DNA of 64,000 bases from the NCBI GenBank assembly GCA_002726235.1, contig PBSN01000008.1:386635-450634 (forward strand). The letters are read 5' to 3'. Position numbers and translations under genes: made by a program. Positions 1,780 through 18,334 of the stretch are shown here, piece after piece (position 1 is the stretch's first letter; each line of letters begins with the position of its first letter). The notes under the pieces were generated by a model that saw only the letters and a list, made by a program, of their open reading frames with translations, was not told the DNA's origin and did not search any database. The stretch is from Nitrospiraceae bacterium. GTDB taxonomy: Bacteria; Nitrospirota; Nitrospiria; Nitrospirales; UBA2166.

Positions 1780-1789
1780 GCGCCTCCTA

Positions 1790-1999
1790 CTACGAATCCT
1801 GAGATTTAGTGACGTTTGACGCTTGCGGGCCTTTTGCGCCCTGAATGATTTCGAATTCGACTTCCTCTCCCTCTTTCAGGGTTTTGAAACCATCCCCTTG
1901 GAGCGCAGAATAATGCACAAAGACATCGCCCCCATCTTCAAGTTTAATAAACCCAAAGCCTTTTTTCTCATTGAACCATTTGACTGTTCCAGTACTCAC
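1790..1999 (-). CDS. cspA: Cold-shock domain protein (CspA family)
   Basis: [15 protein letters not shown] (RNP1), DVFVHYSAL (RNP2), [11 protein letters not shown] start with AGGAGG RBS. Confidence 0.95.
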
Positions 2000-2092
2000 A
2001 ACTGCCTCCTTCTTGATGCCAAAACTAAGGTTGATGCTAGAAAACTAAGACCTAGAGGGCATCTCTTTAAGCCGTAGTTGGGTGCAGGACAG

Positions 2093-2124
2093 AAAAAACC
2101 GTAGAAGGACAACTCCTCCTACGG
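2093..2124 (-). terminator. Intrinsic-terminator-like hairpin upstream of the csp gene
   Basis: Minus strand CCGTAGGAGGA-GTTG-TCCTTCTACGG followed by TTTTTT (11-bp stem with one G-U). Confidence 0.5.
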
Positions 2125-2384
2125 CATACGCTGTCATCAAAGCCTAAAAATCTGTCCATGCGTGAACTAGTACAAAAACGTCCCCACAATAGCTGAATTG
2201 ACCGCCGTGGTCAAGCACAGCAGTCAAGATACTTTTATCGACTGCCAATTCACCCCCCCCTCTGCATGGAGAGCTTGTTATCCTCGCCTGCCGAATTTAC
2301 ACGATAGCACTCATCGGCTATCATACCTAGGTTTTCAACCCATTTGCGTGAATCAGCATTCTCGTCTTCCCATCGCAGGTCTTT

Positions 2385-3488
2385 ATGCGTTCCCTAACAC
2401 TTAACCGGTATATTTTATCGGAATTGTGCCTTCCATTCTCCTTGGCCATTGGCGGATTGTTGTTTGTACTGCTGACTAGGGAGATGACACGGGTAGCAGA
2501 GTTACTAGTGGTGCAAGGCGTTTCGACACTTATGGTCCTCAAACTTATTGCGTACATCCTTCCTTCGTTTATGATTTTGACACTTCCCATTGCCACCCTC
2601 ATTGCATCAACCTGTGCCTTTAGCAGGCTCGCAGCCGATCACGAACTCATTGCTATACAAGCAAGTGGCATCGGGATTCGACAACTTCTTATTCCGGTTT
2701 CAGTATTTTCTATCTGCATTTATGTAGTGGCCTTTTCCCTTTCATTGTGGGCACAGCCCTGGAGTGGGGCGTCACTGAAAACGCTCGCTCTGGGTATGAT
2801 CAAGGAACAGCTGATGCTTCCTCTCGATGAGGGCATGTTCAACGATCCCGTCGATGGGCTTATGATTTATATCCCGCAAACGGACACAGCATCCAAAGGA
2901 ATTTTCATTGCTGATTCCCGGAATGATGAAGGGAACAGAATCCTCGTCGCACAAAACTGGACACTGTTAAGTGATCCGGAAAGCGAACGCATAGGTCTCC
3001 GCCTGATAAACGGGAGCATCCATATCAAAACTCAAATCCCCAATGCAAGTCAGCGCGTGACATTTGATACATACGACATGCAACTAGAATTCGATAAGGG
3101 TTTTCAAACACCCATGACGGATATTCTAGACCTCAACGGCATTTATACGCGTCTTCATGCGTCAGATTGGACGGATGTCAGCGCATTGAAACAACTTGAG
3201 GCATACCACCGGACTTGGGCAATACCAGCAGCATGCCTAATCTTTGGATTCATTGGTGTTCCGCTCGGTGTTCGCTCCGGCGTTGCTGGCCGGATCGGAG
3301 GACTTGGCGTGGGCGTTGCTGGCATCCTCTTTTACTACCTGCTCAACATCTTTGGCGATTTCTTAGTATCCACGCGTACCATGACCCCATGGATCGCGGC
3401 GTGGCTTCCCAATGCCATCTTTATTGTGTTATCCGCATTTCTCTTCCGCTTGGTCTTGCCTTCCGCACCTCAACTGAGGTATCGCTGA
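2385..3488 (+). CDS. lptF: LPS export ABC transporter permease LptF
   Basis: N-terminal LNRYILSE, LPIATLIASTCAFSRLAADHELIAIQASGI coupling helix, 3+3 TM layout, C-terminal AAWLPN. Confidence 0.9.
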   Translation: MRSLTLNRYILSELCLPFSLAIGGLLFVLLTREMTRVAELLVVQGVSTLMVLKLIAYILPSFMILTLPIATLIASTCAFSRLAADHELIAIQASGIGIRQLLIPVSVFSICIYVVAFSLSLWAQPWSGASLKTLALGMIKEQLMLPLDEGMFNDPVDGLMIYIPQTDTASKGIFIADSRNDEGNRILVAQNWTLLSDPESERIGLRLINGSIHIKTQIPNASQRVTFDTYDMQLEFDKGFQTPMTDILDLNGIYTRLHASDWTDVSALKQLEAYHRTWAIPAACLIFGFIGVPLGVRSGVAGRIGGLGVGVAGILFYYLLNIFGDFLVSTRTMTPWIAAWLPNAIFIVLSAFLFRLVLPSAPQLRYR

Positions 3489-3503
3489 GAGAGGATTGAC
3501 GCA

Positions 3504-4601
3504 TTGGCAATCTGGCTTTTAGATCGATACCTCATATCCAAATACCTCAGGATTCTGGGTATTGCAACGACGGCATTGCTCTCAATTTACCTGACCATTG
3601 ATTTTGTTGAGCAGATACGTAAATACTTAAAAGATGACACTCAACTTCTTGATATAATTAGCTATTTAGGGCTTAAGATCCCTGCTATCATTTATCAACT
3701 AACTCCCCTTGCCATCTTACTCGCGACGCTTATCACGCTTGGAACCCTCTCGTACGACAATGAAATTACCGCCATGCGAGCGGGCGGTATCAACCTTTGG
3801 CGTATTACTGCCTCCTTCCTTATCTTTCCATTGGCCCTCAGCCTTCTTCTGCTCGCAGCCGATCATTCGTTGCTTCCAACCACAAATGACCGAGCCCACT
3901 ATGTGCGAACGACTGTTCTTGAACAACATCCCGAGCAAGCGCTTTTCACACAAAACCGTATTTGGTTGCGAGTATCAGCAAACACTTTCATGAATGTGCA
4001 ACTTGTTGATCTTAGTCAGTCAACGCTCTTTGGGATTAGTTTGTATCGGCTCAGCCAGGACTTCGCGTTGCAAGAGATGATTGACGCGCAAGAACTTCGA
4101 CACGATAACGATCAATGGATACTGATATCTGGCATCAAGAGACATTTTCTTGACGACGGGAGAATCCAAACGATCCCGTTTTATCAGGAACCCGTTGACT
4201 TGAAATATGAGCCACTCGAACTTAGGAAGCGGTTAACCATCACGCCTGACAATCTGACCCTACCAGAGCTTGCAAACTATATTGATCGTTTAGAAGAAAG
4301 CGGATACCCCTCGTCCAAATACTCCGCGAATTACTATGGCCGGTACGCTTTTCCTTTTGCTTCTCTTGTTATGGCGATACTTGGGATTTCCATCACCATG
4401 ATGGAACTCAGAACTCGTAGAAAACACTTTGCACGAAGCATAGGATTCACGCTCCTTATTGGGTTTCATTATTGGATCATTCATTCATTTGCCATCGGAA
4501 TAGGCCGTGGTGATGTGATACCTCCAGCGGTCGCAGGATGGACTGCGAACACCCTCTTCCTTACTATTGGATTTTTTCTCATGTCACGAATCCGTCAGTA
4601 G
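3504..4601 (+). CDS. lptG: LPS export ABC transporter permease LptG
   Basis: LLDRYLIS, PLAILLATLITLGTLSYDNEITAMRAGGI, C-terminal PAVAGWTAN; follows lptF. Confidence 0.9.
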   Translation: MAIWLLDRYLISKYLRILGIATTALLSIYLTIDFVEQIRKYLKDDTQLLDIISYLGLKIPAIIYQLTPLAILLATLITLGTLSYDNEITAMRAGGINLWRITASFLIFPLALSLLLLAADHSLLPTTNDRAHYVRTTVLEQHPEQALFTQNRIWLRVSANTFMNVQLVDLSQSTLFGISLYRLSQDFALQEMIDAQELRHDNDQWILISGIKRHFLDDGRIQTIPFYQEPVDLKYEPLELRKRLTITPDNLTLPELANYIDRLEESGYPSSKYSANYYGRYAFPFASLVMAILGISITMMELRTRRKHFARSIGFTLLIGFHYWIIHSFAIGIGRGDVIPPAVAGWTANTLFLTIGFFLMSRIRQ

Positions 4602-4915: not shown

Positions 4916-5593
4916 TCAAAATTGATGAGCAGGAGGCGAAAAGGAATATGAGGATTGATCGTAAACCTGAATAGCTTGAGAAGCCTCGAATAGTTTCGAC
5001 CAGACATCACTCGGATCAGGATTAAAAATAAAATTCGCATCCCCTTGCAATAGATGCCATGCACCTTGTGCCATCTCAGATGCAAGTTGACCTGGGGACC
5101 ACCCCGCATGACCTGAATAGACTCGCAGTACCCCTTCAAGTGCAGAACTGTCACGAAGCGGCTGAAGCACATCGAAACTCGTGCTCACGTAAACATCCGA
5201 AAATACGTGTTGTCCATCCTGGAGCTTCTCAGGATAGCGAAAGAGAAAAATTGGGTTTTCCATGGCAACAGGCCCACCGAAATACAACATCAAATCTACG
5301 CCCCTTAATGCAGTTACCTGTGGCAGTGCTTGAGAAAGAGAGATATCTCTGGGACGATTAATAATGACTCCGTGCGTTCCATGTTCCCCGTGATTCCACA
5401 ACAATACAACCGTCTGCCGAAAATACGGATCACTCATCGCTGAATCCGCAATGAGAAATACTCCTGGCTGAATAGAGGGATTCTCCACGCTTGGAAAGGC
5501 GTCTGCAGACACACCCTGACCAAGGAGCAAAAAAAGAGTGGCACACACGACACGACAGTACTGTTCAACATTTGCACCTCGACACATGAACAT
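4916..5593 (-). CDS. YqgE/AlgH (DUF179) family protein with an N-terminal signal-like segment
   Basis: MSDPYFRQTVVLL, GVIINRP, YFGGPV, YSGHAGWSPGQLASEM..GAW. Confidence 0.88.
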   Translation of the reverse strand: MFMCRGANVEQYCRVVCATLFLLLGQGVSADAFPSVENPSIQPGVFLIADSAMSDPYFRQTVVLLWNHGEHGTHGVIINRPRDISLSQALPQVTALRGVDLMLYFGGPVAMENPIFLFRYPEKLQDGQHVFSDVYVSTSFDVLQPLRDSSALEGVLRVYSGHAGWSPGQLASEMAQGAWHLLQGDANFIFNPDPSDVWSKLFEASQAIQVYDQSSYSFSPPAHQF

Positions 5594-6561
5594 TAATCAA
5601 TACGGACCGGCCAAGGCACATCTTTCAAGACATAAGTCGCAAGGCGTTTTGCCATCTCAATTTGCTTCCCAGTATCATTTTCGTTCAAAACATCTCTCAA
5701 CCCTTGACCAAATAGCTTATCCCTCACCAAGATAAACTGAAGCTCTTCAGCTGCCGAGACATGCCACAGACCTCGCAGGCGAAACCAAGAGAAGACGACC
5801 TGGTCAAGAAAAGTCGGTAATAGATATCGAGCACGATCTGGATGATCGGTCGCCTCTTGCATCTTCCCAAGCCAATGGTAACACTCTGCTTTCAGAGATA
5901 TTTTTTCATTAACAGAGGGGTAGGGAGGACCCTGTCGAAATCGCCGAGTAGCCACGTCTAGAATTTTCGAAGCGATCCCATCGCGCTCAAACAATACTCG
6001 CGCTTTGCGAAGAAATGAGGGAAGATGCAGTGATGTCTGAAGTTCTTCTTCAAGTCCTTTTTGGCCCCGATAGGAGATATCAATTAGCTGTCGTTTCACA
6101 CGAATCCATTGTGCGCTCTGTTCTTCACCCTTGATGATAACGAGGATGAAATGTTTTCCTCTACGCTTTGACCGAGCATCGTAGGCTGCCGCGGGCATAA
6201 TAATCCCGAGCAAATCTCCACCTCGCTTTGCTTTTATATGTCGTAGCGCTATGGGAAGAAGTTCATTAAGTTCATCGCCAAACTCGTCCGCAAGCCAGAT
6301 TGGCAAGGAAGGTTCGGGAAGTTGACTCTCACCATCAGCGATTATCGTACTCGATGTTTCCTGGGGAGATTCATGTGTTGCAGAGAGATTCATCTCATTT
6401 TGTGTAAGATCAGTTTGAATTACTGCTGATGCGTCTAAATCAACATGCGGACGGTTCACATCCACGTCATCTTTCGAAGAGGCTACATAGCCATCTGGCT
6501 GAATTACATGCGCGACTTCAGATGCTTCGGGTTGAGCACCCATCGTTTGTTCTCTATTCAT
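5593..6561 (-). CDS. Hypothetical protein; acidic low-complexity N-terminus, then a possible degenerate nucleotidyltransferase-like plus helical domain
   Basis: 322-aa ORF coupled (TAATG) to the DUF179 gene. IDISY and ARVLFERDG segments resemble NTase-fold proteins, but the GS..DxD motif is absent. Confidence 0.6.
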   Translation of the reverse strand: MNREQTMGAQPEASEVAHVIQPDGYVASSKDDVDVNRPHVDLDASAVIQTDLTQNEMNLSATHESPQETSSTIIADGESQLPEPSLPIWLADEFGDELNELLPIALRHIKAKRGGDLLGIIMPAAAYDARSKRRGKHFILVIIKGEEQSAQWIRVKRQLIDISYRGQKGLEEELQTSLHLPSFLRKARVLFERDGIASKILDVATRRFRQGPPYPSVNEKISLKAECYHWLGKMQEATDHPDRARYLLPTFLDQVVFSWFRLRGLWHVSAAEELQFILVRDKLFGQGLRDVLNENDTGKQIEMAKRLATYVLKDVPWPVRID

Positions 6562-6566
6562 TTTGG

Positions 6567-7529
6567 CTACCCCTTCGCACGATACCTTAGTATCGTGCCC
6601 TCAGCCCCAACTGCCAACCCAAAAGAAGGAGTGACAAAGTCTAGACTCCACAATGTTTTTGTTGTAGGACTTTTCCATTTCGTCCACGTTGCACCGCCAT
6701 CAACGGTATGAAGAAGACTCCCAAGCTCACCAACCGTCCATCCCTTATTCACATCGAGAAAGTCAATTCCGGTCAGTTCTATATCAATATCGCTGGGTTG
6801 AAAATTCCATCGTCGCCCAGCATCGTGGGTCACGGCAATAATTCCACCATCCCCACTTGCCCATCCGTGAGTATTATTCATAAACGACAAGTCAGTGAGG
6901 CGCATTGAAATCCCAACTGGAGAAAAGCCTATGACATTCATAGGTTCCCATGTGTTTCCGCCGTCAGCAGTATGATAAATCTCCCCTTGAACTCCACCTA
7001 TCCAACCATGAGTAGGGTTAACAAATGTGACGGCAGAAAACCATCCGACATCTGGAATATCGTGTGCAGTCCAATTTTTCCCTCCATCCGTTGTATGAAA
7101 GACCTCACTAAAGGTTCCAACAGCCCATCCGTGAAGTTCATCAAAAAAATCTACTGCAAGAAATGCATTCTTGTTGTCGTGCTTCTGAATCTCCCACGTA
7201 TCTCCTCCATCAGTCGTATGAAGAATGGTCATCATATCACCTACGACCCATCCTTTATCAGTAGTGACAAAGTCGACACTATAAAGACTTGATGAAACTC
7301 CACTTGGAAGAACAGTCCACCGATCACCCCCATCACTCGTACGTAAAATCGTCCCCGACTCTCCCACTATCCAGCTAGTTTTGTCGTCGAAAACCGACAC
7401 CCCTGCAAGATTGTATGTTGTATTACTATTCCGAGCCGTCCAGTCTTCATGCTCTCCCGGACAGCCAAGCACAAAAGCCATTGACAAAATACTCAAGGTG
7501 CATAACACCCTAGACCATGATACCTTCAT
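6567..7529 (-). CDS. YCF48/BNR-repeat (Asp-box) beta-propeller, probable lipoprotein
   Basis: Repeated GW.VG..G.I.HT.DGG..W units; VLGC lipobox-like signal. Confidence 0.85.
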   Translation of the reverse strand: MKVSWSRVLCTLSILSMAFVLGCPGEHEDWTARNSNTTYNLAGVSVFDDKTSWIVGESGTILRTSDGGDRWTVLPSGVSSSLYSVDFVTTDKGWVVGDMMTILHTTDGGDTWEIQKHDNKNAFLAVDFFDELHGWAVGTFSEVFHTTDGGKNWTAHDIPDVGWFSAVTFVNPTHGWIGGVQGEIYHTADGGNTWEPMNVIGFSPVGISMRLTDLSFMNNTHGWASGDGGIIAVTHDAGRRWNFQPSDIDIELTGIDFLDVNKGWTVGELGSLLHTVDGGATWTKWKSPTTKTLWSLDFVTPSFGLAVGAEGTILRYRAKG

Positions 7530-8509
7530 GGAATCACAACGATACCATGAGGATCTTTTCCAACGGGAATACTGGCCACAACAGTGTGTGTAGATAGCTC
7601 AATCACTTCGACAGTTTCGGTATCTCGACTCGTCACATACAATTCCTTGCCATCAGGAGAAAACACAGGAATATCAGGACGTTTTCCAACCGGGATTGTC
7701 ACAATAGGAACGCGATGCCGAACATCAATAAGTGAAACTGTGTCATCACCTCGGTTTGCAACCGCAGCAAGCTTTCCATCAGATGTTATAGCGAGACCAT
7801 GAGTATCTTTTCCAAGCGCAATCTCAGCGACAACTGTACGTGTCGCTGTATCAATCACCGACACCTGATCTTCGCCGCCTTCGGTAACCCACAGCTCTCC
7901 GCCACTCGGTGTGATGCTGATTCCCATTGCATCCTTCCCCGCAAACACATCCTGAACTGTTTGCCGTTCCCAAGTATCAATCACTGAGATATCCGCTGAA
8001 CCACCATTACTCACATAAGCGTAGTGACCATCAGGACTAAATACGGTAAGCATCGGTTTTTTTCCCACAGGTATTGTGTCAATGACTTTCTGCTCTGCCA
8101 ACGAAATAATCGAAACCGTATTTGCCCCCACATTTGCAGTGTAAAGATATTGACCATCAGGTGTTACCGAAACTCCATGTGTTTTCGTTCCAGCTGGAAT
8201 GCTTACCACTTCTCGTTTGGCTACGGTATCAAACACCACAACATTGTGACTTCCGACGTTTGCAATATACAGGTGTTTTCCGTCTAAAGATGCCACAAGA
8301 TTGTGTGGTTTCTTGCTTGAAAGTGGAATAGTGTGGGTTACCTCTTTCGTTGTGGAATCAATAACCGACAAGGAATTCGAAGCTTGATTTCCTACATAAA
8401 TTGTCGCGGCGTGGACAGGAACACTGAAACAAAGCACGGCAGACATACACATTAGCCCCAAATGGACTATCCGTTTATTTCGAAGTAGCGTCATCATGGG
8501 TACCTCCAT
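7526..8509 (-). CDS. YVTN/YncE-family seven-bladed beta-propeller, exported
   Basis: Repeats of SPDG..LYV.N..S..VSVID......TIPVG..P; signal peptide ending VHA. Confidence 0.88.
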   Translation of the reverse strand: MEVPMMTLLRNKRIVHLGLMCMSAVLCFSVPVHAATIYVGNQASNSLSVIDSTTKEVTHTIPLSSKKPHNLVASLDGKHLYIANVGSHNVVVFDTVAKREVVSIPAGTKTHGVSVTPDGQYLYTANVGANTVSIISLAEQKVIDTIPVGKKPMLTVFSPDGHYAYVSNGGSADISVIDTWERQTVQDVFAGKDAMGISITPSGGELWVTEGGEDQVSVIDTATRTVVAEIALGKDTHGLAITSDGKLAAVANRGDDTVSLIDVRHRVPIVTIPVGKRPDIPVFSPDGKELYVTSRDTETVEVIELSTHTVVASIPVGKDPHGIVVIP

Positions 8510-8933
8510 GTTGATCCGATGCCGAAAACATCGTGCGTAGGAAGTTTACAACATGCCACCGATCTTCTTCTGATAATTGCAACTGCCAGTTTGGCATGGC
8601 CCGCCGACCGACAGTGATTTTCCAGTAGAGACTGCCATCAGATTGTCGTTGTATCGCTGGATCCATGAAATTCGCCATGGCAACGCCCAAACTCAGTGAC
8701 GATGGGCCATCTCCATCACCTCGCGAACCATGACACACTTGGCAATTCTTGGCGTACACCAATATCCCACGTCCAATTGAAGCTTGTGTCGGAAGAATCG
8801 GGTTTTGACGTTGTTTGGCTTCGCCTGGAATATCCCAAGACGTTGACCGTTCGATCGCAAAAAGGGGAGTAGAGCAAAAAACAAGAAATGCAATGCTAAG
8901 GAGAAAAGCGCGACTCAAATGAATTGTTAACAC
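8475..8933 (-). CDS. Monoheme class I cytochrome c, exported
   Basis: Signal peptide, CQVCH, GDGDG, SDGSLYWKI..G..AMP (distal Met), W.VVNFLR. Confidence 0.9.
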   Translation of the reverse strand: MLTIHLSRAFLLSIAFLVFCSTPLFAIERSTSWDIPGEAKQRQNPILPTQASIGRGILVYAKNCQVCHGSRGDGDGPSSLSLGVAMANFMDPAIQRQSDGSLYWKITVGRRAMPNWQLQLSEEDRWHVVNFLRTMFSASDQHGGTHDDATSK

Positions 8934-8942
8934 GTAGCACCC

Positions 8943-9332
8943 TTACCCCTCGGTAAATCGAAGCATCGTGGATGCTTCATACGCTTTCTCGTCACTGCTG
9001 GTGAAGACGACCCTAATTTGGCCTTCCTCTGAGGCTCGAAGTTTAAATGTCACAATTGGATCATCACTAAGTGCAGCGCTCATCTCATAGGTTGACACTA
9101 ACGCGTCACGAAAAAACACTTCCATCTTGTTAATGTAAAATGCTGGCTCGCCTTTGGCAAAAACATGTTCCGCTATCATTCGAAGCCCTGTCCTAGCTGG
9201 ATGGCGCATCTTGGCCTGCACTTTTATGACTTTCCCTCTGGAAATCCGTATGGGCAACCGAATGCGAGGAGGTGCAATCAGCTGTGAAGAGGAAATTGGA
9301 TTCTGATGATGTTGCTTGTGCTGCTCTGCCAT
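8943..9332 (-). CDS. soxZ: SoxZ-like sulfur-carrier subunit
   Basis: HPARTGLR (canonical HPMETGLR), EPAFYI, SAALSDDPIVTFKL; no signal peptide; directly downstream of the SoxY-like gene. Confidence 0.7.
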   Translation of the reverse strand: MAEQHKQHHQNPISSSQLIAPPRIRLPIRISRGKVIKVQAKMRHPARTGLRMIAEHVFAKGEPAFYINKMEVFFRDALVSTYEMSAALSDDPIVTFKLRASEEGQIRVVFTSSDEKAYEASTMLRFTEG

Positions 9333-9354
9333 GTCAAACTACCCGTCGCCCAGT

Positions 9355-9867
9355 CTAACACCCACCAACGGCCACATCTATACTGTGTTCAGTGACCCAT
9401 TTTCCATGCTGATTACACTCCGCAATAACATAAACTGTAGATTCACCAGAATCAATTCGAAGTTGGGTGTACAGATACACTTCGCCATTGTCTGGAGTAA
9501 AACTAAAGGTGCCTTTCCAGATGATTGGATCATGGTAGTCAAGAATTTGCACACTGGTTATGTAATGGTCCTGTTCCATAGGATGGTCCATTGCGACGAT
9601 AATGGGGGCGTTGGCACCATCCTCAACAACATCAGGCATCCGTATCATTGGAATATGCAGCTTCTCAAAAGGAGTTAGGCTCTCTCGGTCACGAGGAAAC
9701 TGAATCAGCTCAGGCAATGTCGACGCGCTCGCCACAGGTCTGCCGAGAAACCCAGATATGCCGAACGCGCCGAGGCTCCCAAACCATGCCCAGAGCATCT
9801 CTCGCCTAGTCAAATTCTTGGCAAATCGAGCCATGGAACGCACCCCATTAAACGAATACTGCCTCAC
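9355..9867 (-). CDS. soxY: SoxY-like carrier with Tat signal and superoxide-reductase-type metal-ligand motifs
   Basis: Tat motif TRREML; PDVVEDGANAPI; C-terminal VAVGGC; also EKLHIP, HPMEQDHYI and CNQHG. Alternative start at 9834. Confidence 0.7.
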   Translation of the reverse strand: MRQYSFNGVRSMARFAKNLTRREMLWAWFGSLGAFGISGFLGRPVASASTLPELIQFPRDRESLTPFEKLHIPMIRMPDVVEDGANAPIIVAMDHPMEQDHYITSVQILDYHDPIIWKGTFSFTPDNGEVYLYTQLRIDSGESTVYVIAECNQHGKWVTEHSIDVAVGGC

Positions 9868-9898
9868 CCATTTATCTCCACAGGTACTAGTAAAATAG

Positions 9899-10729
9899 CT
9901 AGAGCTTCAGATCCCATTTGAGACTTGTTAAGTAAGCATTCACTGCATTGAGTTCATCAGAAGATAAATTGAAACTTGGCATGAAAGTCCGTGGTTTCAT
10001 TTTTTGCGGGTCGGTGAGCCAACTATCCCTCCATTCCGGTCGAATTTTACTTCCCACAAATGTCAGGTCAGGGTAGCCAAAAACACCTCTGGCATCGTCA
10101 TCCTCACCAATGGTGTGGCAGGCTCGACAATCATAGGCATCAGGGGCGGCCAGAGCCTCTCCGATTTTCTCCAACGACTTCCCTGATGAGAGAATTGTGG
10201 CCGGGTCAAAATCAACCTTCAGGGTTTCAAGAAAGGCAATCACATCCGCAACCTCTTGATCACCTGCCCAGTCAAAAACTGGCATCTGAGTCTGTGGAAA
10301 CATTTCCGTGGGATCCCAAATCCAGTTAAACAGCCACTGTTTGCTTCGCCGAGCCGTCACCTGGTTGAGTGTTGGGCCTGTCTCACCCCCAATATATTCA
10401 CCATCTTGCAAGACACTGTGGCATTGAAGACACTGCACACCATCACCCCAGTCCTTTTGGAACAATGCCTCACCGCGCTTTGCATCACCTGCTGGGATCT
10501 CTGCCAATTCTCCTCCAAGCGGACCGGCGGCCGGGGCAAAACGAACCGACGGATGCATATCATCAAACGAAACAACAACTGGCGCCGGCGGTGACGATGA
10601 AGTTGCCTCAGACGTGATTTCTTCAGAATTGGTCGCGCATCCGGCCAACAGAAAGATGCAACCAATCACTAGCGGCACATAGGTTTTCCACGATAACGAT
10701 CGCATTGTTTGCATTTTTGGAATGACCAT
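9899..10729 (-). CDS. Diheme cytochrome c lipoprotein
   Basis: Lipobox LAGC; CLQCH..GPTL..TQMP and CRACH..PDL..TFMP (two class I domains with His/Met ligation). Confidence 0.88.
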   Translation of the reverse strand: MVIPKMQTMRSLSWKTYVPLVIGCIFLLAGCATNSEEITSEATSSSPPAPVVVSFDDMHPSVRFAPAAGPLGGELAEIPAGDAKRGEALFQKDWGDGVQCLQCHSVLQDGEYIGGETGPTLNQVTARRSKQWLFNWIWDPTEMFPQTQMPVFDWAGDQEVADVIAFLETLKVDFDPATILSSGKSLEKIGEALAAPDAYDCRACHTIGEDDDARGVFGYPDLTFVGSKIRPEWRDSWLTDPQKMKPRTFMPSFNLSSDELNAVNAYLTSLKWDLKL

Positions 10730-10768
10730 TGGTTCCTCCCATTATTAATTGTCTTACTTTCATGAATA

Positions 10769-12103
10769 CTACTGCTTAATGGAAATCGCACTAAAGTAAA
10801 TATCGCTACACTGGACTGGGGGACAGGGCGACAACAATCCAGTATCATGTCGTTGATCCGACCACATGACAAGAAAACGTTTTGACTCACTCACAGCAAG
10901 ACTCGGAAAAAGCTGATCTTCTGACCCTCCATCGTCATCAATCTGAACATTTTTTGTAAACGTTTTCCCTCTGTCACGACTCAGGGAGAAAAAAATATCA
11001 AAATTGTCATATCGCTTGTCCTCCCAAACCACACCAATCGTGCCATCGGAGGTAACTGCGATACTCGGATGAAACTGAAAGGCATCAGAAGAGTCATCGC
11101 TCACCTTAATGTTAAGACCAAATGATTTCCCGCCATCGACACTCTTTCCAAAATAAATATCTGGCTGGCTATTATTTCGAAGATCGTGCCAAGCAATATA
11201 TATATGACCTTTCGCATCAACTGCCAGACTTGGGTTGAATTGGTGCGTCTTCGTTTCATCATCACTGACCATCAGATTGCGACTAAATGACTCGCCGCCA
11301 TCAGTGCTTCTTGCAAAGAAAATATCCGCATTGCCTTTCCGATGATCATGCCACGCAAGAACAATCGTCCCGTCCGGACTCACAGCCAACGTTGGGTAGA
11401 GCTGCCCAGCACTGCCAAATTCGTCAGTGACCTTGACATTGCGGCGAAATGTTCGACCTCCATCCATGCTCTTTGAAAAATAGATGTCGGCCTGCGCACG
11501 TCGATAGTCTTGCCATACAACGTAAATCTCCCCTTTAGTTCCTAAAGCAACCATAGGATGTGTTTGAAACGCAGCTGGTTCAACGTATTCAGGATCTCCA
11601 AATTCATCGACTGCAGGCTCGCGGGTTTCATCATCATTCACCTTGACACTCGCAGTGAAGCCCCCAGTAACACCAAGAGAGATACTACGAGCAAAATAAA
11701 TATCCTGATCTCCATCACGTTCGTCTAGCCAAACGACGTACACATGCCCCTGCGCATCAATGGCTGAGGTTGCTCCATACAAATGAGCCTTATCTGGGAT
11801 ATCATTTACACGAACCGACGGAGCGAACGTCGCTCCATCATCTAGGCTTTGGACAGCAAAGATGTTTGATCGCCCTGCCCGCTCATCCGACCACACCGCC
11901 ACAACAAGCTGTTCATCAGTCTCAAGCTTTCGAGATACCAAGCCTCGTTGACCGGCAGACAGCGTCATTGCGGTGACCTTCCCAACGGGATAATCAGAAA
12001 TCCGCATGTTTGACTGGCCTGCTGTTTGTCCCATCCGACCACTCCCAATCCAAAGGATCACTAGTCCAAGCAGGAGAATAATGAGGAAAAAACCGCGTCG
12101 CAA
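10769..12103 (-). CDS. Asp-box (BNR, sialidase-like) beta-propeller, exported or membrane-anchored
   Basis: Seven W-x-D-x-R motifs with DI[FY]F..S.DGG.[ST]F..N..V.DD repeats; hydrophobic N-terminal helix. Confidence 0.8.
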   Translation of the reverse strand: MRRGFFLIILLLGLVILWIGSGRMGQTAGQSNMRISDYPVGKVTAMTLSAGQRGLVSRKLETDEQLVVAVWSDERAGRSNIFAVQSLDDGATFAPSVRVNDIPDKAHLYGATSAIDAQGHVYVVWLDERDGDQDIYFARSISLGVTGGFTASVKVNDDETREPAVDEFGDPEYVEPAAFQTHPMVALGTKGEIYVVWQDYRRAQADIYFSKSMDGGRTFRRNVKVTDEFGSAGQLYPTLAVSPDGTIVLAWHDHRKGNADIFFARSTDGGESFSRNLMVSDDETKTHQFNPSLAVDAKGHIYIAWHDLRNNSQPDIYFGKSVDGGKSFGLNIKVSDDSSDAFQFHPSIAVTSDGTIGVVWEDKRYDNFDIFFSLSRDRGKTFTKNVQIDDDGGSEDQLFPSLAVSESKRFLVMWSDQRHDTGLLSPCPPVQCSDIYFSAISIKQ

Positions 12104-12113
12104 TGGTGGACTA

Positions 12114-12830
12114 CTATTTCAAGCTCTCAAGATATGTCGTAATTGCTGTGATAGCATCCTCAGAGAGATTGAAGTCTGGCATAAACGTTCCCTCGATGAT
12201 ATCGTCGGGGTTCCTCAACCAGATATGCTCCCATTCCCGATAAATCTTACTCCCAACATGGGTCAGGTCGGGATACATCGCCCGACCACCTCCAGCCTCC
12301 CCTTCCCCTATTGTATGACAGGCTCGACAATCATAGGCATTGACCAACACTTCTCCTGCCGCAATGTTCGCACCCCCGTGTTGAGTGATAACAGCCGCGA
12401 CATCAGGCGGCGTTGCAGTGGACATAAGAAACGCGGCAATGTCAGCAGATTGTTGTAGGTTTTCCCATGGAAATTGCGGCATCGGCGTCTCTGGATAAAT
12501 CGATCGCGGTTCATTCACAAATTCGAAAAGATGGTCTTCCGACCTGCGCAACCCAACCTCGGTAAGAGTTGGACCGACTCTTCCACCTGCCAACAATTTA
12601 GAACCATCTGGTTGTGCTTCATACAATGCCTCATGGTCAATGATATGACAATTTACGCAAAGGCTCTTCTTATACAGTTCTACACCCTTTACGGGATCTC
12701 CAACCAGCGGTTGCTCCTCCGCAAATCCAATAGTTCCCCCTAGGAACATGCCACTCAACAATACAGCAGCCCCGACATACCATATTCCTGTCCAGCGCAT
12801 GGAATCGTGTTTCTGTTGCTTCATTGCCAC
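12114..12830 (-). CDS. Diheme cytochrome c, paralog of 9899-10729
   Basis: Signal peptide; CVNCH..GPTL..TPMP and AYDCRACHTIGE..YPDLT.VGSKI..TFMP. Confidence 0.88.
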   Translation of the reverse strand: MAMKQQKHDSMRWTGIWYVGAAVLLSGMFLGGTIGFAEEQPLVGDPVKGVELYKKSLCVNCHIIDHEALYEAQPDGSKLLAGGRVGPTLTEVGLRRSEDHLFEFVNEPRSIYPETPMPQFPWENLQQSADIAAFLMSTATPPDVAAVITQHGGANIAAGEVLVNAYDCRACHTIGEGEAGGGRAMYPDLTHVGSKIYREWEHIWLRNPDDIIEGTFMPDFNLSEDAITAITTYLESLK

Positions 12831-12921
12831 CCTCCTCTAGCAAAGAATTAACGACGTACTATCCGCCCAAGTTTAACAACTCACGTACCGTATAATAGCA
12901 AACTCGCTCGCCCAAAGGGAT

Positions 12922-12963
12922 AAAAAAAGGGGGAGAAGATTTCTTCTCCCCCCCCCTTTTTTT
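12922..12963. terminator. Bidirectional intrinsic terminator after the three Cys-ligated cytochrome genes
   Basis: A7, GGGGGAGAAG stem, short loop, CTTCTCCCCC stem, T7. Confidence 0.75.
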
Positions 12964-12994
12964 CTAGCACTCAGTTGAAACAGGAAACGCGATC

Positions 12995-13639
12995 TTACAT
13001 GGCACCTGCAACCGGACCAGCCGGTAGAATTTTCTTGGCACCTGGTTTCCACTTCTTCCCTTTGCTAAAAGACGAGATATAGTTCGCAAGATCGACTGAG
13101 GCCTGAGTGTTTTGATCAATCCATTGGCCTTTGTTGAACGCCGAAATGCACATATTGTTCATAGCCGGAAGGTTCACCATAAACCCACGACGCGGCCCGC
13201 GTGGCTTCGGAAAGCTTACCGCAGCGCCTTTGAGGGTCGGAATCGACAATTTCGGACGAAACACGAATCCACCGGGTTTAATGACCTCAGTTGTAGCTGC
13301 CCCACCAATTGATCCTCCACCTTCATGACAACTCGCACAACTTTGTCCGGCATTCCCATTACCAAGCGTTGGATCGTGATAGATCTTCTTGCCTCGCTCC
13401 AACGAAGCTTCCATGGTATCTGGGGCGCTATTTTGCATTGCCTTCATTAACTCAGCCACCTCTGCATCCGACAAATACGGATCCGCCATCATTCTGATAT
13501 CTATGGGCTTAGCGTTGGCTAATTTCGCTTCCATTGAATCGGCCCCAATTCCTTTACCGGCACCAGCCGTTGTACCTCCACCTGCACATGACGCGAAAGC
13601 AAACAGAGGTATGGCTAAGAGACTGATATATCGTTTCAT
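12995..13639 (-). CDS. Monoheme cytochrome c with SoxA/TsdA-type distal Cys motif, lipoprotein (paralog 3)
   Basis: Lipobox FASC; GQSCASCH; LKGAAVSFP; NLPAMNNMCISAFNKG; DLANYISSFSKG. Confidence 0.8.
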   Translation of the reverse strand: MKRYISLLAIPLFAFASCAGGGTTAGAGKGIGADSMEAKLANAKPIDIRMMADPYLSDAEVAELMKAMQNSAPDTMEASLERGKKIYHDPTLGNGNAGQSCASCHEGGGSIGGAATTEVIKPGGFVFRPKLSIPTLKGAAVSFPKPRGPRRGFMVNLPAMNNMCISAFNKGQWIDQNTQASVDLANYISSFSKGKKWKPGAKKILPAGPVAGAM

Positions 13640-13696
13640 TTCATCCTCCCATTGTCAGAGATCCTTAAGAACCTCATACCATTACCACATCTTTGC

Positions 13697-14233
13697 TTAT
13701 GGCAAGGTTGGCTTACCACCCGGCTCATACCGCTTTCCTTTGCTCAAACTGGCAACATAGGACTCAAGATCAATCGCCTGGTGAGAATTTCTGTTTAAAG
13801 GTTTCCCCTTCAAAAATGTCATCAGGCACATGTTGTTCATGCCAGCGAGGTCAGTGACGACCTTCATCGGACCTCGCACGGCCGGAAAATGCGCAGCAGC
13901 ACCCTTCAGGGTAGGAATGGCCACCTGCATGGCCTGTCCTTTCCACTTCATCTCTGTCGCACCCCCAACCGATCCACCACCTTCATGGCAACTCGCACAA
14001 CTTTGCCCAGTGGTGTTATGCCCTAGCTTTGGATCATTGAACATTTTATTACCGGCTTTAACAGAATCCTTTAATGTCACGATGTCCATGTCAGCCATGG
14101 TACCCATCCCAACCATGCCGGTTTCCGGTGACAACAACTTCATCCCCGGAAGAGACGCTGCTCCAGCATACGTAACCACCCCGAGCAATATCGCGACGCT
14201 CCCCAAAAGCAAAATAACTTTTGCCATTTTCAT
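13697..14233 (-). CDS. Monoheme cytochrome c with SoxA/TsdA-type distal Cys motif (paralog 2)
   Basis: Signal peptide; GQSCASCH; LKGAAAHFPAVR; DLAGMNNMCLMTFLKGKPL; DLESYVASLSKG. Confidence 0.8.
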   Translation of the reverse strand: MKMAKVILLLGSVAILLGVVTYAGAASLPGMKLLSPETGMVGMGTMADMDIVTLKDSVKAGNKMFNDPKLGHNTTGQSCASCHEGGGSVGGATEMKWKGQAMQVAIPTLKGAAAHFPAVRGPMKVVTDLAGMNNMCLMTFLKGKPLNRNSHQAIDLESYVASLSKGKRYEPGGKPTLP

Positions 14234-14257
14234 CGCATTCCCCCTTAGGTTGGTAGA

Positions 14258-14827
14258 TTACATCGCCCCAGGAATTGGAGTCGGGACGATCTTTTTTCCG
14301 CCAATTTTATACCGTTTTCCCTTGCTGAGAGACCCTATATAAGTCTGAAGATCGACAGCCGGCCGCATGTTTTTGTTCAACGGCAAGCCCTTCATGAAGG
14401 TCATAATGCACATGTTATTCATGTCCCCAAGATCAGCAATCCGCTTCATCGGACCACGAATAGCGGGGAAATTCACCGCAGCGCCTTTCAAGGTTGGAAT
14501 GGCAACCATCATTTTCATGCCCTTCCAATTCATTTCCGCAGCGCCGCCGACCGATCCACCACCACTATGACAGGTTGCGCAAGACTGGCCCGTCTCGTTC
14601 TTACCCAACTTGGGGTTATTGAACATCTTTTCCCCACGCATTAACGAAGCTTCAAGGGTGTCTGGCTTCATGTTCATCATCATTTCTTTCATCTTCATGA
14701 CTTTCTCTTTCGGGATATATGGGTCCGGCATTGCCCCCTTCATACCCTCGCCGGCTATCGCATACAGCGACACCCCAAAGACTGCAACCGCAATCGCGGC
14801 ACTGATCAAAACTACTTTCTTACTCAT
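14258..14827 (-). CDS. Met-rich monoheme cytochrome c with SoxA/TsdA-type distal Cys motif (paralog 1)
   Basis: Signal peptide; GQSCATCH; LKGAAVNFPAIR; DLGDMNNMCIMTFMKGLPL; GGAGGA RBS. Confidence 0.8.
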   Translation of the reverse strand: MSKKVVLISAAIAVAVFGVSLYAIAGEGMKGAMPDPYIPKEKVMKMKEMMMNMKPDTLEASLMRGEKMFNNPKLGKNETGQSCATCHSGGGSVGGAAEMNWKGMKMMVAIPTLKGAAVNFPAIRGPMKRIADLGDMNNMCIMTFMKGLPLNKNMRPAVDLQTYIGSLSKGKRYKIGGKKIVPTPIPGAM

Positions 14828-16145: not shown

Positions 16146-16982
16146 TCAGGCACCAGTGAAATCACCATCGCTACCACCAGTTGATGGTCCTTGGGATCCT
16201 AAATAAATCATCCCATTCTCAATGTCATCCTTCACTTGCTGAACCCCAAAGTACATAAATTTTGCTTCGTCAGGACATTCGCGGCACAACAATAAACTCC
16301 GTCTGTCCGTTTTATGATGTCGCTGGTCTTGCTGAATCGTCTCAAGAAATTTTGATTCATCCATCTTGATACGAAGTCCACAAAAGTCGAGTAGCCGCTG
16401 TATTTCACACATTGGATCCTGAAAATAGTCATCATAGAAGGTCACGAACATTGGAATCCCAATGCTATGCCTAAATGCGATGTCCATATACTGCTTCCAA
16501 AGGACCATGCCGGACTGAATAGACCACCCATGCCGAGTTGCAAGTGAGTGAGCAACATCCACAGGATTCCGAATCACTAACACCAGACGCAATGCACTAA
16601 CCACACGTCTCCAAAATGGTAGCGTGAGCGTCGTTCGCGGATCTTTCCATCCCCAATGCAATGCCCCACGACGCCCGTATGCCCGATGGAGGATGGCGAC
16701 GGCCTCTTCCATTAGAAGGGGTATGTCCGACGCTCTTTCCCAGCCATTCTGCCATTGAGAAGGTTTCATCCAAGTGCCTCCTTGGGAAGCCAAAAGACGA
16801 TCGTTAAGATCCATAATTTCTCGATTTTCCCAAAAACCTAAAGGATTGTCGTCTTGGGGATCTAAGAATCGTTCTGGATCACCAAGATCAAGCCCCGCAC
16901 GATTGAGAAGACGAGCCACCATTGATGTTCCACTACGATGCATTCCAATGATGCAAATCGCAGATCCAGCAAGAGGTGTCAT
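16146..16982 (-). CDS. Sulfotransferase family protein
   Basis: 5'-PSB GMHRSGTS, DNPLGFWE, WGWKDPR, 3'-PB IRNPVDVAHS. Confidence 0.88.
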   Translation of the reverse strand: MTPLAGSAICIIGMHRSGTSMVARLLNRAGLDLGDPERFLDPQDDNPLGFWENREIMDLNDRLLASQGGTWMKPSQWQNGWERASDIPLLMEEAVAILHRAYGRRGALHWGWKDPRTTLTLPFWRRVVSALRLVLVIRNPVDVAHSLATRHGWSIQSGMVLWKQYMDIAFRHSIGIPMFVTFYDDYFQDPMCEIQRLLDFCGLRIKMDESKFLETIQQDQRHHKTDRRSLLLCRECPDEAKFMYFGVQQVKDDIENGMIYLGSQGPSTGGSDGDFTGA

Positions 16983-17014: not shown

Positions 17015-18334
17015 TTATCGGTTTACCTCTTCACGTGATTCGACCTTCTCCTTCACTCTCACGGAGATGTTGGTCTCCATATAAGCCAAACCGACAAAAC
17101 GCTTCGCACTGTGGACTTGAAAGACAAGAAGGTCTTTTCGCTTGTCCAACATACGAACATGGGTGCCAAGCTTCTCTGTCACACCACAGCTTAGAATATA
17201 GTTTCCTGCGTGAAACTGCGTAAGGATTGAAAAATCAATGGTCAAGACCGTACCTGCTACCTGAGGGTCTAAGGGAAAATCAGCGTTATCAGTGCTGATA
17301 CCGTATACGGCAACACCAACTGGAGTGTGGATTGCCATCCCTACACTCGGCGTTGTGATATCACGATGAAAGGAAATGGTCATTGCGATCGTAACCCAGC
17401 TCCCCCTCTGCACAGCCCGACACGGCATATTTTTGTGATCGTAAAGCTCAACCTCAAGGATCTCTGCAGCACGCGAACCAAACCTATATTCCTCTCCTTC
17501 TAAGGCTGGCTGAAACCCAACATCTTCCAAGCCACGTTCACCATCATCGAGCCAATATGCCCGAGACCCTTGTGTCAACTTCAAACGCTCGACATATTCT
17601 TCTTCCCGGCGAGACAACAACTCCCTATAGGAGTGAAAAACATTTACTGGAGGGCCTGCAGTAAGCATTGTTCCATGATCAAGTAAAATGGCTTCGTCAC
17701 ACACGGTTTGTATCACCTGCGCACTATGCGAAGCCAATACAATCGTTTTCCCATCCCTCTTCGCCTGTTCAAGACGCCGGAAACATCGCCGCTGAAACAT
17801 GCTATCACCAACTTGAAGTGCCTCGTCGAGAATGAAGATATCAGCATCAATGTTTGCCGCAATAGCAAACGCCAGTCTAATGTACATTCCAGATGAGTAG
17901 GTCTTGACCGGTTGATCAAGAAACGTACCAATTTCCGCAAAGTCCACGATCAGATCAAAGCGTTCTTCCATCTCAGCACGATCAATCCCAAGAATAGCGC
18001 CGTTAAGATACACATTGTCGCGTCCAGTAAACTCGGGATCAAACCCTGCGCCCAACGCCAACAAAGCTGCGATTCTTCCCTGAAGCTGGATTGTCCCTGT
18101 TGTAGGTTGCAGAACGCCTGCGAGGAGCTGCAGCAACGTACTTTTTCCTGCTCCGTTTTGTCCAACCAAGCCAATAATTTTGCCCCGTTCGACCTCAAAA
18201 GAAATATCGCGTAACGCCCAATACTCTTCATGATAGCTTCTGCGTCGAATGGAAAACAGTTCACGTAATCGATCCACTGGACGACGATAAAGATTGTAAG
18301 ATTTGGATAAGTTGTGCACGACAACCGTGTTCAT
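17015..18334 (-). CDS. wzt: Polysaccharide ABC exporter ATP-binding subunit with C-terminal Wzt_C domain
   Basis: Walker A GQNGAGKST, GAGFDPEFTGRDN, KTYSSGM signature, ILDEAL, C-terminal RFGS.. extension. Confidence 0.93.
   Translation of the reverse strand: MNTVVVHNLSKSYNLYRRPVDRLRELFSIRRRSYHEEYWALRDISFEVERGKIIGLVGQNGAGKSTLLQLLAGVLQPTTGTIQLQGRIAALLALGAGFDPEFTGRDNVYLNGAILGIDRAEMEERFDLIVDFAEIGTFLDQPVKTYSSGMYIRLAFAIAANIDADIFILDEALQVGDSMFQRRCFRRLEQAKRDGKTIVLASHSAQVIQTVCDEAILLDHGTMLTAGPPVNVFHSYRELLSRREEEYVERLKLTQGSRAYWLDDGERGLEDVGFQPALEGEEYRFGSRAAEILEVELYDHKNMPCRAVQRGSWVTIAMTISFHRDITTPSVGMAIHTPVGVAVYGISTDNADFPLDPQVAGTVLTIDFSILTQFHAGNYILSCGVTEKLGTHVRMLDKRKDLLVFQVHSAKRFVGLAYMETNISVRVKEKVESREEVNR

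Follow-up and report, generated by a model that had tools for sequence, protein, structure and literature searches.

A Sox-like periplasmic redox operon with a predicted iron-site SoxY carrier in marine Nitrospirales of the family UBA2166

The window analyzed here, a 64,000-nucleotide stretch at C8:386635–450634 of genome G000 (1.87 Mb, 27 contigs, 90.65% complete) from a Nitrospiraceae bacterium, contains 13 tightly packed, co-oriented minus-strand open reading frames (ORFs) between positions 4916 and 14827. We find that they form a real periplasmic redox operon of UBA2166, a marine, non-nitrite-oxidizing family, in which a SoxY-like carrier with a predicted superoxide-reductase-type iron site lies beside SoxA-like and SoxX-like cytochromes. 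Neighboring genes overlap or are separated by at most 57 bases, with the sole exception of a 164-base gap between the genes that we call c3 and dh1. A regular-expression count found eight CxxCH motifs in six proteins (a single motif in each of the monohaem proteins c1, c2, c3, and cyt c, and a pair in both dh1 and dh2), and a hydrophobic, export-like N-terminal segment was present in 11 of the 13 proteins, SoxZ and a 322-aa protein being those that do not have it. The lipobox-like cysteines of c3 (FASC) and of the Ycf48-like propeller (VLGC) were read by eye. The original prediction, made from the letters of the window alone, had described 13 co-oriented genes with overlapping or short junctions and eight CxxCH motifs in six proteins, most of the products being exported, and our coordinates and counts agree with it. 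The features are as follows, in the order of transcription.

14258–14827, minus strand: c1, an exported monohaem cytochrome of 189 aa with CATCH at 83 and a putative single SoxA/TsdA-type haem domain
13697–14233, minus strand: c2, a paralogue of c1 of 178 aa with CASCH at 79 and Cys136
12995–13639, minus strand: c3, a third paralogue of 214 aa, lipoprotein-like (FASC), with CASCH at 101
12930–12956, minus strand: a terminator-like hairpin in the c3–dh1 gap, with a 10-bp stem and a T run, identified as a consensus match only
12114–12830, minus strand: dh1, a dihaem class-I cytochrome c of 238 aa, SoxX/FixO-like, with CVNCH at 58 and CRACH at 168
10769–12103, minus strand: an exported six-bladed BNR/Asp-box propeller of 444 aa (BNR_2, 40.6 bits)
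9899–10729, minus strand: dh2, a dihaem SoxX-like lipoprotein cytochrome c of 276 aa with CLQCH at 100, CRACH at 201, and an LAGC lipobox
9355–9867, minus strand: metallo-SoxY, a SoxY-like carrier with a twin-arginine (Tat) export signal (TRREML), a C-terminal -GGC, and the predicted ligand set of superoxide reductase centre II
8943–9332, minus strand: SoxZ, 129 aa, signal-less (PF08770, 59.1 bits)
8475–8933, minus strand: cyt c, an exported monohaem class-I cytochrome c of 152 aa (Cytochrome_CBB3, 46.9 bits)
7526–8509, minus strand: an exported seven-bladed YVTN propeller of 327 aa (TIGR02276 repeats, 199.6 bits)
6567–7529, minus strand: a Ycf48-like propeller lipoprotein of 320 aa (PSII_BNR/Ycf48, 195 bits; VLGC)
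5593–6561, minus strand: a 322-aa protein with no signal and 0 Pfam or NCBIfam matches
4916–5593, minus strand: an AlgH/YqgE-like protein of 225 aa with an N-terminal hydrophobic segment (DUF179, 121.6 bits), the last gene of the run

The carrier matched two Pfam families within the same protein, SoxY (PF13501, 60.6 bits; cut-off 28.4) and Desulfoferrodoxin (PF01880, 44.6 bits; cut-off 22.2). Its true start is probably at 9834, giving a 159-aa form that is the cluster representative P0001. In an alignment of 17 relatives from Nitrospirales, Gammaproteobacteria, and Chloroflexi (45–83% identical), Glu68, His71, His95, His101, Cys151, His154, and the terminal Gly168-Gly169-Cys170 were invariant, a lysine or arginine followed Glu68 (position 69) in 15 of the 17, and every sequence ended in -VGGC with no residue beyond the cysteine. 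When the carrier-family profile was run against the PDB, it matched Thermus SoxY (4uwq_B, E 9.9e-6) and the Ignicoccus superoxide reductase (SOR) 4brj (E 6.6e-5), and the HPxxxxH and CNxHG motifs of the carrier coincided position by position with the SOR ligands of 4brj; canonical SoxY is without them. An AlphaFold2 (AF2) model of the carrier had a mean pLDDT of 75, with blocks of 88–96 across most of the structure that give way to 66 near residues 111–120, and Foldseek ranked an SOR first (4brv_A, E 7.4e-8, TM 0.76 by target), followed by SoxYZ (2ox5_E, E 8.3e-6, TM 0.80). The ligand set of SOR centre II, of the Fe(His)4Cys type, is thus complete, and the bound metal is presumably iron. The extra metal site that had been proposed for this SoxY is therefore backed by a full ligand set, which occurs together with the terminal arm cysteine in 17/17 relatives. 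By NCBIfam equivalog models, the carrier scored 44.6 bits on TIGR04488 (SoxY_true_GGCGG; cut-off 125) and has no GGCGG arm, which places it outside the true SoxY family, and it scored 27.8 bits on TIGR00332 (cut-off 61.9).

An exhaustive profile search returned 856 representatives at E ≤ 1e-3, of which we classified the best 150. Nine of these stand alone and combine the complete HHHCH set with an arm cysteine at the C-terminus, 17 had the HHHCH set and an internal arm cysteine followed by ~120 residues, seven had the metal site but no aligned arm, 65 were canonical SoxY-like proteins with the arm present and the site absent, and 52 were fragments or showed an incomplete pattern. A scan of 13 of the 17 internal-arm proteins showed each of the 13 to be a SoxY–SoxZ fusion by NCBIfam, with 52.9–99.4 bits on TIGR04557, below its cut-off of 140 in each case. 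No curated NCBIfam model covers the metallo-SoxY family, as judged from the carrier of the window and the 13 fused forms scanned, and a tblastn search of plasmids with the fused metallo-SoxYZ P0117 gave no match.

The gene that follows the carrier encodes a SoxZ that scored 47.4 bits on TIGR04490 (SoxZ_true; cut-off 76), and G000 holds one soxY and one soxZ only. We modelled the complex from carrier residues 53–170, with iron included, and SoxZ, both entered as alignments, in three runs. The interface score ipSAE was 0.89, versus 0.01 for the best control; the ipSAE mark applied is reached by 116/157 solved complexes and by 2/215 mismatched pairs. At least 97% of contacts were common to the three runs, and partner pLDDT was at least 85. 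Together with the adjacency of a signal-less partner, the model predicts a SoxY/SoxZ heterodimer, as had been expected of this pair, although its high score may reflect likeness to solved SoxYZ structures rather than provide independent proof. The modelled interface takes in Cys170 of the arm and Met97, which lies between two of the predicted iron ligands.

The three small cytochromes at the head of the operon are mutually 46–56% identical (c3 versus c1 or c2, 46–50%). On PF21342, the Pfam SoxA/TsdA cytochrome c domain, c1 and c2 scored 35.2 and 40.7 bits, above the cut-off of 27, and c3 scored 25.8, just below it. In 17/17 aligned members of this family, the CxxCH motif and the cysteine of an MNNMC motif (Cys136 of c2) were invariant, and c3, despite its lower domain score, retains this cysteine. 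SoxA proteins above the TIGR04484 cut-off occur in 13 of 301 sampled Nitrospirota genomes, and in 10 aligned sequences of this kind Cys125 and Cys235 were the only invariant cysteines outside the two CxxCH motifs. Hhalign matched the c-family profile to these 10 true SoxA sequences with a probability of 98.5% (E 3.7e-15), placing residues 55–170 of c2 on SoxA residues 66–159, CxxCH on CxxCH, and Cys136 on Cys125. Because of this match and the correspondence of the invariant cysteines, c1, c2, and c3 appear to be stand-alone copies of the SoxA-type haem domain that keep the axial-cysteine position, and His/Cys ligation of their haems is predicted; both points are in line with the original description of SoxA as three small Cys-ligated domains. 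Their TIGR04484 SoxA scores (29.5, 32.3, and 23.3 bits for c1, c2, and c3) are well under the cut-off of 110 and would place them outside the SoxA equivalog family, and G000 gave no TIGR04484 match at E ≤ 1e-10. A word-indexed search recovered 62 relatives of the small cytochromes, none with a name more specific than "hypothetical", "cytochrome c", or "cytochrome c peroxidase". Sequence searches of the PDB with c2 alone or with the c-family profile had no significant match, the best E values being 0.21 and 0.015, confined to the haem-motif region of cytochrome c peroxidase (CCP)/MauG and SoxA proteins.

SoxX is a monohaem His/Met cytochrome that pairs with SoxA. On the SoxX model TIGR04485 (cut-off 61), dh2 scored 88.6 bits and dh1 scored 59.7, just below; both proteins are dihaem, and their scores sum two domains. 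The SoxX-like role that had been assigned to the two dihaem proteins is thus consistent with the family scores. In addition, dh1 matched Cytochrom_C with 58 bits over two stretches, and dh2 had only generic class-I cytochrome c matches in the PDB, with SoxX 1h31_B at E 0.0015.

Three propellers accompany these cytochromes, and the Asp-box, YVTN, and YCF48-like types named in the original prediction were recovered as BNR_2, TIGR02276, and PSII_BNR matches. The gene for the BNR propeller sits between the two dihaem genes in loci L001–L004, and an Atlas search with this protein found generic BNR/sialidase-like clusters only. The YVTN protein scored 192.6 bits on TIGR03866, below the cut-off of 287.3, and is 21–24% identical to the propeller of gammaproteobacterial carrier loci. 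We rejected a hydrazine-synthase-like or NosZ-like assignment for it, as its scores of 133 and 103 bits (cut-offs 560 and 700) reflect generic propeller similarity, and we likewise set aside a shared metal-ligand set, as only one histidine is invariant between the YVTN propellers of the two operon types; neither orthology nor a copper site is claimed. The Ycf48-like protein has a paralogue at C7:133939–134919. None of the three propellers has a demonstrated link to the chemistry of the operon.

Conservation in other genomes had been proposed as a check on the cluster, and it is observed. We compared 14 genome loci (L001–L014; L010 ends within the carrier gene) and the best 80 metagenome loci. 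The Nitrospirales gene order recurred in 4/14 of the former and 6/80 of the latter, and thus the cluster is not a chance assembly. In L001–L004, the order is dihaem, BNR, dihaem, carrier, SoxZ, cyt c, YVTN, Ycf48, with small cytochromes visible upstream in L003 and L004. The closest loci for the carrier are from Nitrospirales metagenome-assembled genomes, the best being "Nitrospiraceae bacterium UBA2166" (83% carrier identity), and the whole arrangement recurs only within UBA2166. Carriers were found in 4 of 121 sampled Nitrospirales genomes, G000 included: three of the four other genomes of its own family have one (the exception is 73% complete), as do 0/116 genomes of three other families.

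The other 10 of the 14 genome loci, from Gammaproteobacteria and one Chloroflexi, have the order YVTN, carrier, 1.7-kb gene, SoxZ, cyt c, which we call type G. The 1.7-kb gene is SoxB-like, with scores of 407 and 472 bits on TIGR04486 (cut-off 550), and the flanking genes are YeeE/TsuA-like, DUF302, SCO1, and a DsbH-like thioredoxin protein, so that the complete marine cassette reads YeeE, YVTN, metallo-SoxY, SoxB-like, SoxZ, cyt c, DUF302, SCO1, thioredoxin-like. The Chloroflexi locus L007 deviates, with SoxZ directly after the carrier and the SoxB-like gene further downstream. The best 80 metagenome loci comprise 68 of type G and 6 of the Nitrospirales type N, another 6 being too short for typing. 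A SoxB-like gene comes after the carrier in 58 loci (58/68 of type G), SoxZ takes this place in 5 loci, and a SoxA-like or dihaem gene was found in 0/68 type-G loci. The type-G cassette shares with the UBA2166 operon its metallo-SoxY (43–50% identity), SoxZ, a following cytochrome c, and a nearby YVTN-class propeller. It differs in having the SoxB-like gene between soxY and soxZ and in lacking SoxA-like and dihaem genes, whereas the Nitrospirales type shows the reverse. A cyt c homologue follows SoxZ in L001–L009 and L012–L014 and in 45/68 type-G metagenome loci. In the gammaproteobacterial cassettes (L005, L006, L008, L009, and L011–L014), this cytochrome has an extra N-terminal domain of ~120 residues that by eye resembles a heavy-metal-associated fold and has no CxxC motif; an SCO1 gene comes after the cytochrome gene.

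The small cytochromes also occur apart from the carrier. The c-family profile matched 82/301 Nitrospirota genomes at E ≤ 1e-5, and the matches were full length (E ≤ 1e-82) in G000 and three others only; the remaining matches were short and lay around the haem motif. In 3/3 of the other full-length genomes, a dihaem cytochrome gene directly follows the small cytochrome gene. In locus L044, a Ycf48-like gene likewise follows this pair, and in one c-plus-dihaem locus a rhodanese and two thiol-disulfide oxidoreductases are encoded along with a Ycf48-like protein. The UBA2166 operon is therefore a composite of two modules that are found apart elsewhere: module A, comprising c1–c3 and dh1/dh2, and module B, comprising the carrier, SoxZ, and cyt c together with propeller proteins. 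A query with the fused form matched 23/301 Nitrospirota genomes, and in 5 of the 6 regions fetched the carrier bore HPxxxxH, CNKHG, and a terminal GGC (the sixth, L158, is outside this motif count). Counting Nitrospirota, Gammaproteobacteria, and Chloroflexi together, metallo-SoxY occurs in three or more operon types, and it is common in marine metagenome contigs.

The absence of SoxB and SoxCD from the window, as originally stated, was borne out, and a search for canonical soxAB elsewhere in the genome found none that would account for this SoxYZ pair, the sole one of the genome. TIGR04486 gave 0 SoxB matches at E ≤ 1e-3 in G000 as assembled and 0/5 in G009, G017, G336, G197, and G138. The proposal that the remaining genome be searched for soxB and soxCD gave a divided answer: soxB was not found, but three periplasmic molybdenum (Mo) enzymes of the sulfite-oxidase family, which are SorA/SoxC-like, exist elsewhere in G000. 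Their SorA scores are 197, 422, and 235 bits (cut-off 600), and the best SoxC score of the three (TIGR04555) is 206.4 bits (cut-off 420), which places them outside SoxCD; a SorB-like cytochrome adjoins one of them. G000 also encodes a cytochrome b complex, full-length CCP/MauG dihaem enzymes, and two homologues of the Nitrospira-type bd-like oxidase subunit I (C7:100720–102486 and C8:275510–277459), each flanked by c-type cytochromes, with a dihaem paralogue of dh1/dh2 beside one of them. Searches of G000 for haem-copper oxidase (PF00115) and YeeE (PF04143) gave no match, which at 90.65% completeness is not proof of their absence.

In its accessible parts, a comparison of Nitrospirales genomes describes UBA2166 as a marine family, the sole one in the order without nitrite oxidoreductase; lists reductive tricarboxylic acid cycle carbon fixation, TauE, two sulfite-oxidase-family enzymes, and "genes homologous to soxYZ" among its traits; states that "the remaining sox genes ... 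were not found"; and independently suspects a role in sulfur cycling (ISME J 2025, PMC12342949). The available portions of the paper cited there for the soxYZ statement (PMC11033732) contain no analysis of the cluster at 4916–14827. Our literature search found no characterized operon that matches this cluster and no paper that joins SoxY with desulfoferrodoxin or neelaredoxin, or SoxYZ with superoxide reductase. The proposal of an undescribed periplasmic module built from Sox-related parts is thus supported.

Several lines of evidence bear on what this module does. First, the parts resemble those of canonical Sox: a Tat-exported SoxY-like carrier with a C-terminal Gly-Gly-Cys arm, a signal-less SoxZ, a SoxA-type haem domain with the cysteine-ligand position, and SoxX-like class-I cytochromes, all periplasmic parts encoded in one operon. 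Unlike canonical Sox, however, the arm is -GGC rather than -GGCGG, the carrier has an SOR-type metal site that canonical SoxY does not, SoxA is represented by three single-haem proteins and SoxX by two dihaem proteins, three propellers are added, and neither SoxB nor a SoxC above the cut-off was found. Second, the SoxB-like neighbors of the carrier in type-G loci provide a sulfur context for the carrier family. Third, the grouping of a YVTN propeller and a small cytochrome c with a SoxYZ-like carrier recalls the quinoprotein-associated SoxYZ-like system (TIGR04557). The operon nevertheless falls outside that system, with TIGR04557 scores of 43.6 and 46.9 (cut-off 140), a TIGR03866 score of 192.6 (287.3), a PedF score of 19.7 (122), separate soxY and soxZ genes, and no pyrroloquinoline quinone dehydrogenase in the window, where the sole gene with a glucose/sorbosone dehydrogenase fold is 8 kb off, inside an O-antigen cluster. 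Because a SoxXA-like haem complex lies beside a SoxYZ-like carrier in a lineage with sulfite-oxidizing enzymes and oxidases fed by cytochrome c, we favor a non-canonical Sox-type periplasmic system that oxidizes an inorganic sulfur compound, a reading to which we give an even chance. Taken together, the components correspond to the opening half of a Sox cycle.

To the observed gene content, homologies, conserved ligands, synteny, and modelled SoxY–SoxZ pairing, we can add a scheme for substrate, electron path, and SoxB-free product release that we infer from them. The Tat-exported carrier would take the signal-less SoxZ along across the membrane. Module A, as the counterpart of SoxXA, would oxidatively couple thiosulfate or sulfide to Cys170, and the sulfur would then be held on the -GGC arm of a carrier that would also bear a mononuclear Fe(His)4Cys centre. 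Electrons would leave by way of the dihaem and monohaem cytochromes c to the two bd-like oxidases, the iron centre may serve as a one-electron redox or catalytic site that replaces the SoxB and SoxCD steps, and sulfite, if released, could be oxidized by the three SorA/SoxC-like Mo enzymes.

A number of observations weigh against this sulfur-oxidation scheme. First, the hhalign match of the small cytochromes covers only the N-terminal haem domain of SoxA (residues 66–159), which in dihaem SoxA is the non-catalytic one, the catalytic haem being C-terminal with His/Cys(persulfide) ligation, and the AF2 model of c2 was poor (mean pLDDT 44.4), so that the fold could not be checked. Second, in the strand layout of the carrier model, both iron-ligand loops lie at one end of the last β-hairpin and the arm departs at the other end; thus arm and metal site are probably at opposite poles of the sandwich, both beside SoxZ, and direct chemistry between arm and iron within one subunit is doubtful. 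Third, each module seems able to do without the other. SoxA was found in 0/5 tested genomes with type-G loci, which argues that the carrier can work without SoxA, and the 3/3 Nitrospirota genomes with the c-plus-dihaem pair have no SoxY above the cut-off and no SoxB, which argues that the pair can work without the carrier. Fourth, in L156 (G143:C405) an iron-site SoxY (GGC), a SoxZ, and a DsbH-like thioredoxin protein at 1782–4270 coexist with a canonical SoxY (GGCGG, no ligands), SoxZ, SoxA, and SoxB at 9988–13426, ~7.5 kb away, and the two carrier types are therefore paralogues with different jobs rather than interchangeable parts. Fifth, SoxB was also not found in two relatives with completeness values of 98% and 96%, and a carrier-bound sulfonate would thus be left with no known route of release. 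Finally, SoxY, SoxZ, SoxA, and SoxC all score below their NCBIfam equivalog cut-offs.

There is also a bolder version of the Sox-type reading. We propose it tentatively, as a rather unlikely extension: the iron-site SoxY would be a catalytic carrier whose Fe(His)4Cys centre, with the adjacent cyt c, loads or oxidizes sulfur on the -GGC arm of a neighboring subunit, so that SoxAX in the gammaproteobacterial cassette, or SoxB and SoxCD in UBA2166, become dispensable; the family would be a living link between SOR and SoxY, and the operon would constitute the core energy metabolism of UBA2166.

The occurrence of the modules apart from one another also speaks for two independent systems that lie side by side and share an operon for co-regulation, module A being a carrier-independent thiosulfate dehydrogenase or tetrathionate former of the TsdA/TsdB kind and module B having an unrelated job. 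The c-plus-dihaem pair stands alone in all three of the other Nitrospirota loci, one of them with rhodanese and thiol-disulfide oxidoreductase neighbors; module B stands alone in the type-G loci; and the terminator-like hairpin at 12930–12956, a possible attenuation point, sets c1–c3 apart from the remaining genes. Terminator-like sites numbered 17 in the region, compared with 9.0 ± 3.3 in shuffled sequence, and a promoter scan gave 13 sites, compared with 14.2 ± 3.4, which is no better than chance, and no promoter is claimed. Like TsdA/TsdB, module A has a SoxA/TsdA-type haem domain with a conserved cysteine beside a dihaem cytochrome c, and the pair also occurs without SoxY. TsdA, however, carries two haems in one chain, with His/Cys and His/Lys-Met ligation, whereas c1–c3 have one CxxCH each, and no TsdA-specific model was matched in the family-model scans, which leaves them outside TsdA. 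Moreover, the two dihaem genes immediately precede the carrier gene in all four UBA2166 genome loci and in two metagenome loci, and the expansion to three small and two dihaem paralogues is seen only where the carrier is present. We consider two unconnected systems unlikely.

The SOR-like features of the carrier would suit a periplasmic defense against oxidative stress, in which the carrier acts as a Tat-exported SOR fed by cytochromes c and CCP-like small cytochromes remove peroxide. In common with 1Fe superoxide reductase/neelaredoxin (PF01880), the carrier keeps the fold, the five predicted centre II ligands, the conserved glutamate, and the nearby Lys/Arg (15/17), and SORs lead the Foldseek ranking. 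A Tat signal also marks the TAT-SOR class, a recognized sequence class in SORGOdb, whose description, in its accessible parts, nowhere mentions SoxY (PMC3116461). The small cytochromes had weak CCP_MauG matches (20.8–27.7 bits), only that of c2 exceeding the cut-off of 25.6. Unlike an SOR, however, the carrier has a SoxY-type terminal cysteine arm, a SoxZ partner, and one extra residue between the Glu-Lys pair and the first histidine, and it lies in a Sox-like context rather than one of rubredoxin and oxidative stress. Stress defense would leave unexplained the terminal -GGC in 17/17 relatives, the SoxZ partner, the SoxB-like neighbor in 58/68 type-G loci, and the SoxA-type cysteine of c1–c3, and full-length CCP/MauG enzymes are already encoded elsewhere in the genome. 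This function seems to us quite improbable.

We see equally little likelihood that the operon handles another chalcogen or redox species (selenium, thio-arsenic, or nitric oxide [NO]) with the cysteine arm and iron site serving for binding or relay: NO and small anions bind to SOR-type iron, an arsenite-oxidase-like Mo enzyme is encoded in G000, and selenium-linked NCBIfam models gave sub-threshold matches near the type-G cassette (YedE/FdhT 120.7, UshA-like selenoprotein 90–92, and TsoB 48.2 bits), but these matches are all far below their cut-offs, none lies within the window, and the strongest family signals are all Sox-related (SoxA/TsdA, SoxX, SoxY, and SoxZ).

The Sox-type reading that we prefer bears on several questions. 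The operon is a new Nitrospirales type that joins an iron-site carrier to SoxA-like and SoxX-like cytochromes without SoxB, and the placement of these cytochromes directly beside the soxYZ genes of UBA2166 suggests a testable pathway of sulfur oxidation. UBA2166 comprises the closest non-nitrifying relatives of Nitrospira, and its energy source, unexplained so far, has a candidate in this operon. The carrier merges two families that have been seen as separate, the SoxY sulfur carrier and the SOR iron centre, and its biochemistry would bear on the evolution of Sox, on sulfur cycling in the dark ocean, and on the role of periplasmic SOR-type iron sites.

At least part of the stretch is present in 20 listed sequencing runs from 14 studies. 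We compared four RNA libraries, representing at most 3 samples and 3 studies and labelled as hydrothermal vent or marine metagenome. Contigs from these libraries (≥99% identity) cover 21, 14, 14, and 5 of 30 bins, including c1–c3, dh1, the BNR gene, and dh2, and the carrier and SoxZ are covered in two of the four runs. These data are assembled contigs in which DNA carry-over is possible and whose depth cannot rank genes; uncovered parts of the operon, such as the bins between 6902 and 8225 in all four runs, say nothing about expression there. Habitat is not read from the remaining runs or from those with small shares. In the contigs of runs X17 and X19, which derive from one sample, a base is missing at position 11796 in the BNR gene, and this difference could be a strain variant with a frameshift or an assembly error.

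The last two genes of the run are conserved only among the closer relatives, within L001–L003 and not in L004. The 322-aa gene is kept in L001–L003, and its assignment to the operon is by position only. An AlgH-like homologue occurs at the matching position in L003 only, and G000 has a second AlgH-like copy at C8:462788–463276. The AlgH/YqgE family is usually regarded as cytoplasmic, and the protein encoded at 4916–5593 has a hydrophobic N-terminus.

Elsewhere in G000, C13:60079–63366 encodes a pair of subunits that resemble arsenite oxidase. The small subunit is of the Rieske type, and the molybdopterin subunit (897 aa) carries a Rieske_3 3Fe-4S domain at its N-terminus. The pair is flanked by two CCP/MauG dihaem proteins and a cytochrome c and may be a second route for a lithotrophic electron donor. 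In a 583-aa protein encoded at C6:25978–27729, a cytochrome P460 domain (85.3 bits) occurs together with three CxxCH motifs. Within the window, the minus strand between 16146 and 28024 carries four Sulfotransfer_3-family genes (16146–16982, 19211–20032, 20082–20936, and 27149–28024) with a Wzm/Wzt-type ABC exporter among them (17015–19204), and heptosyltransferase, glycosyltransferase, and lipid A genes adjoin (33078–52662). This set of genes suggests a sulfated O-antigen or capsule.

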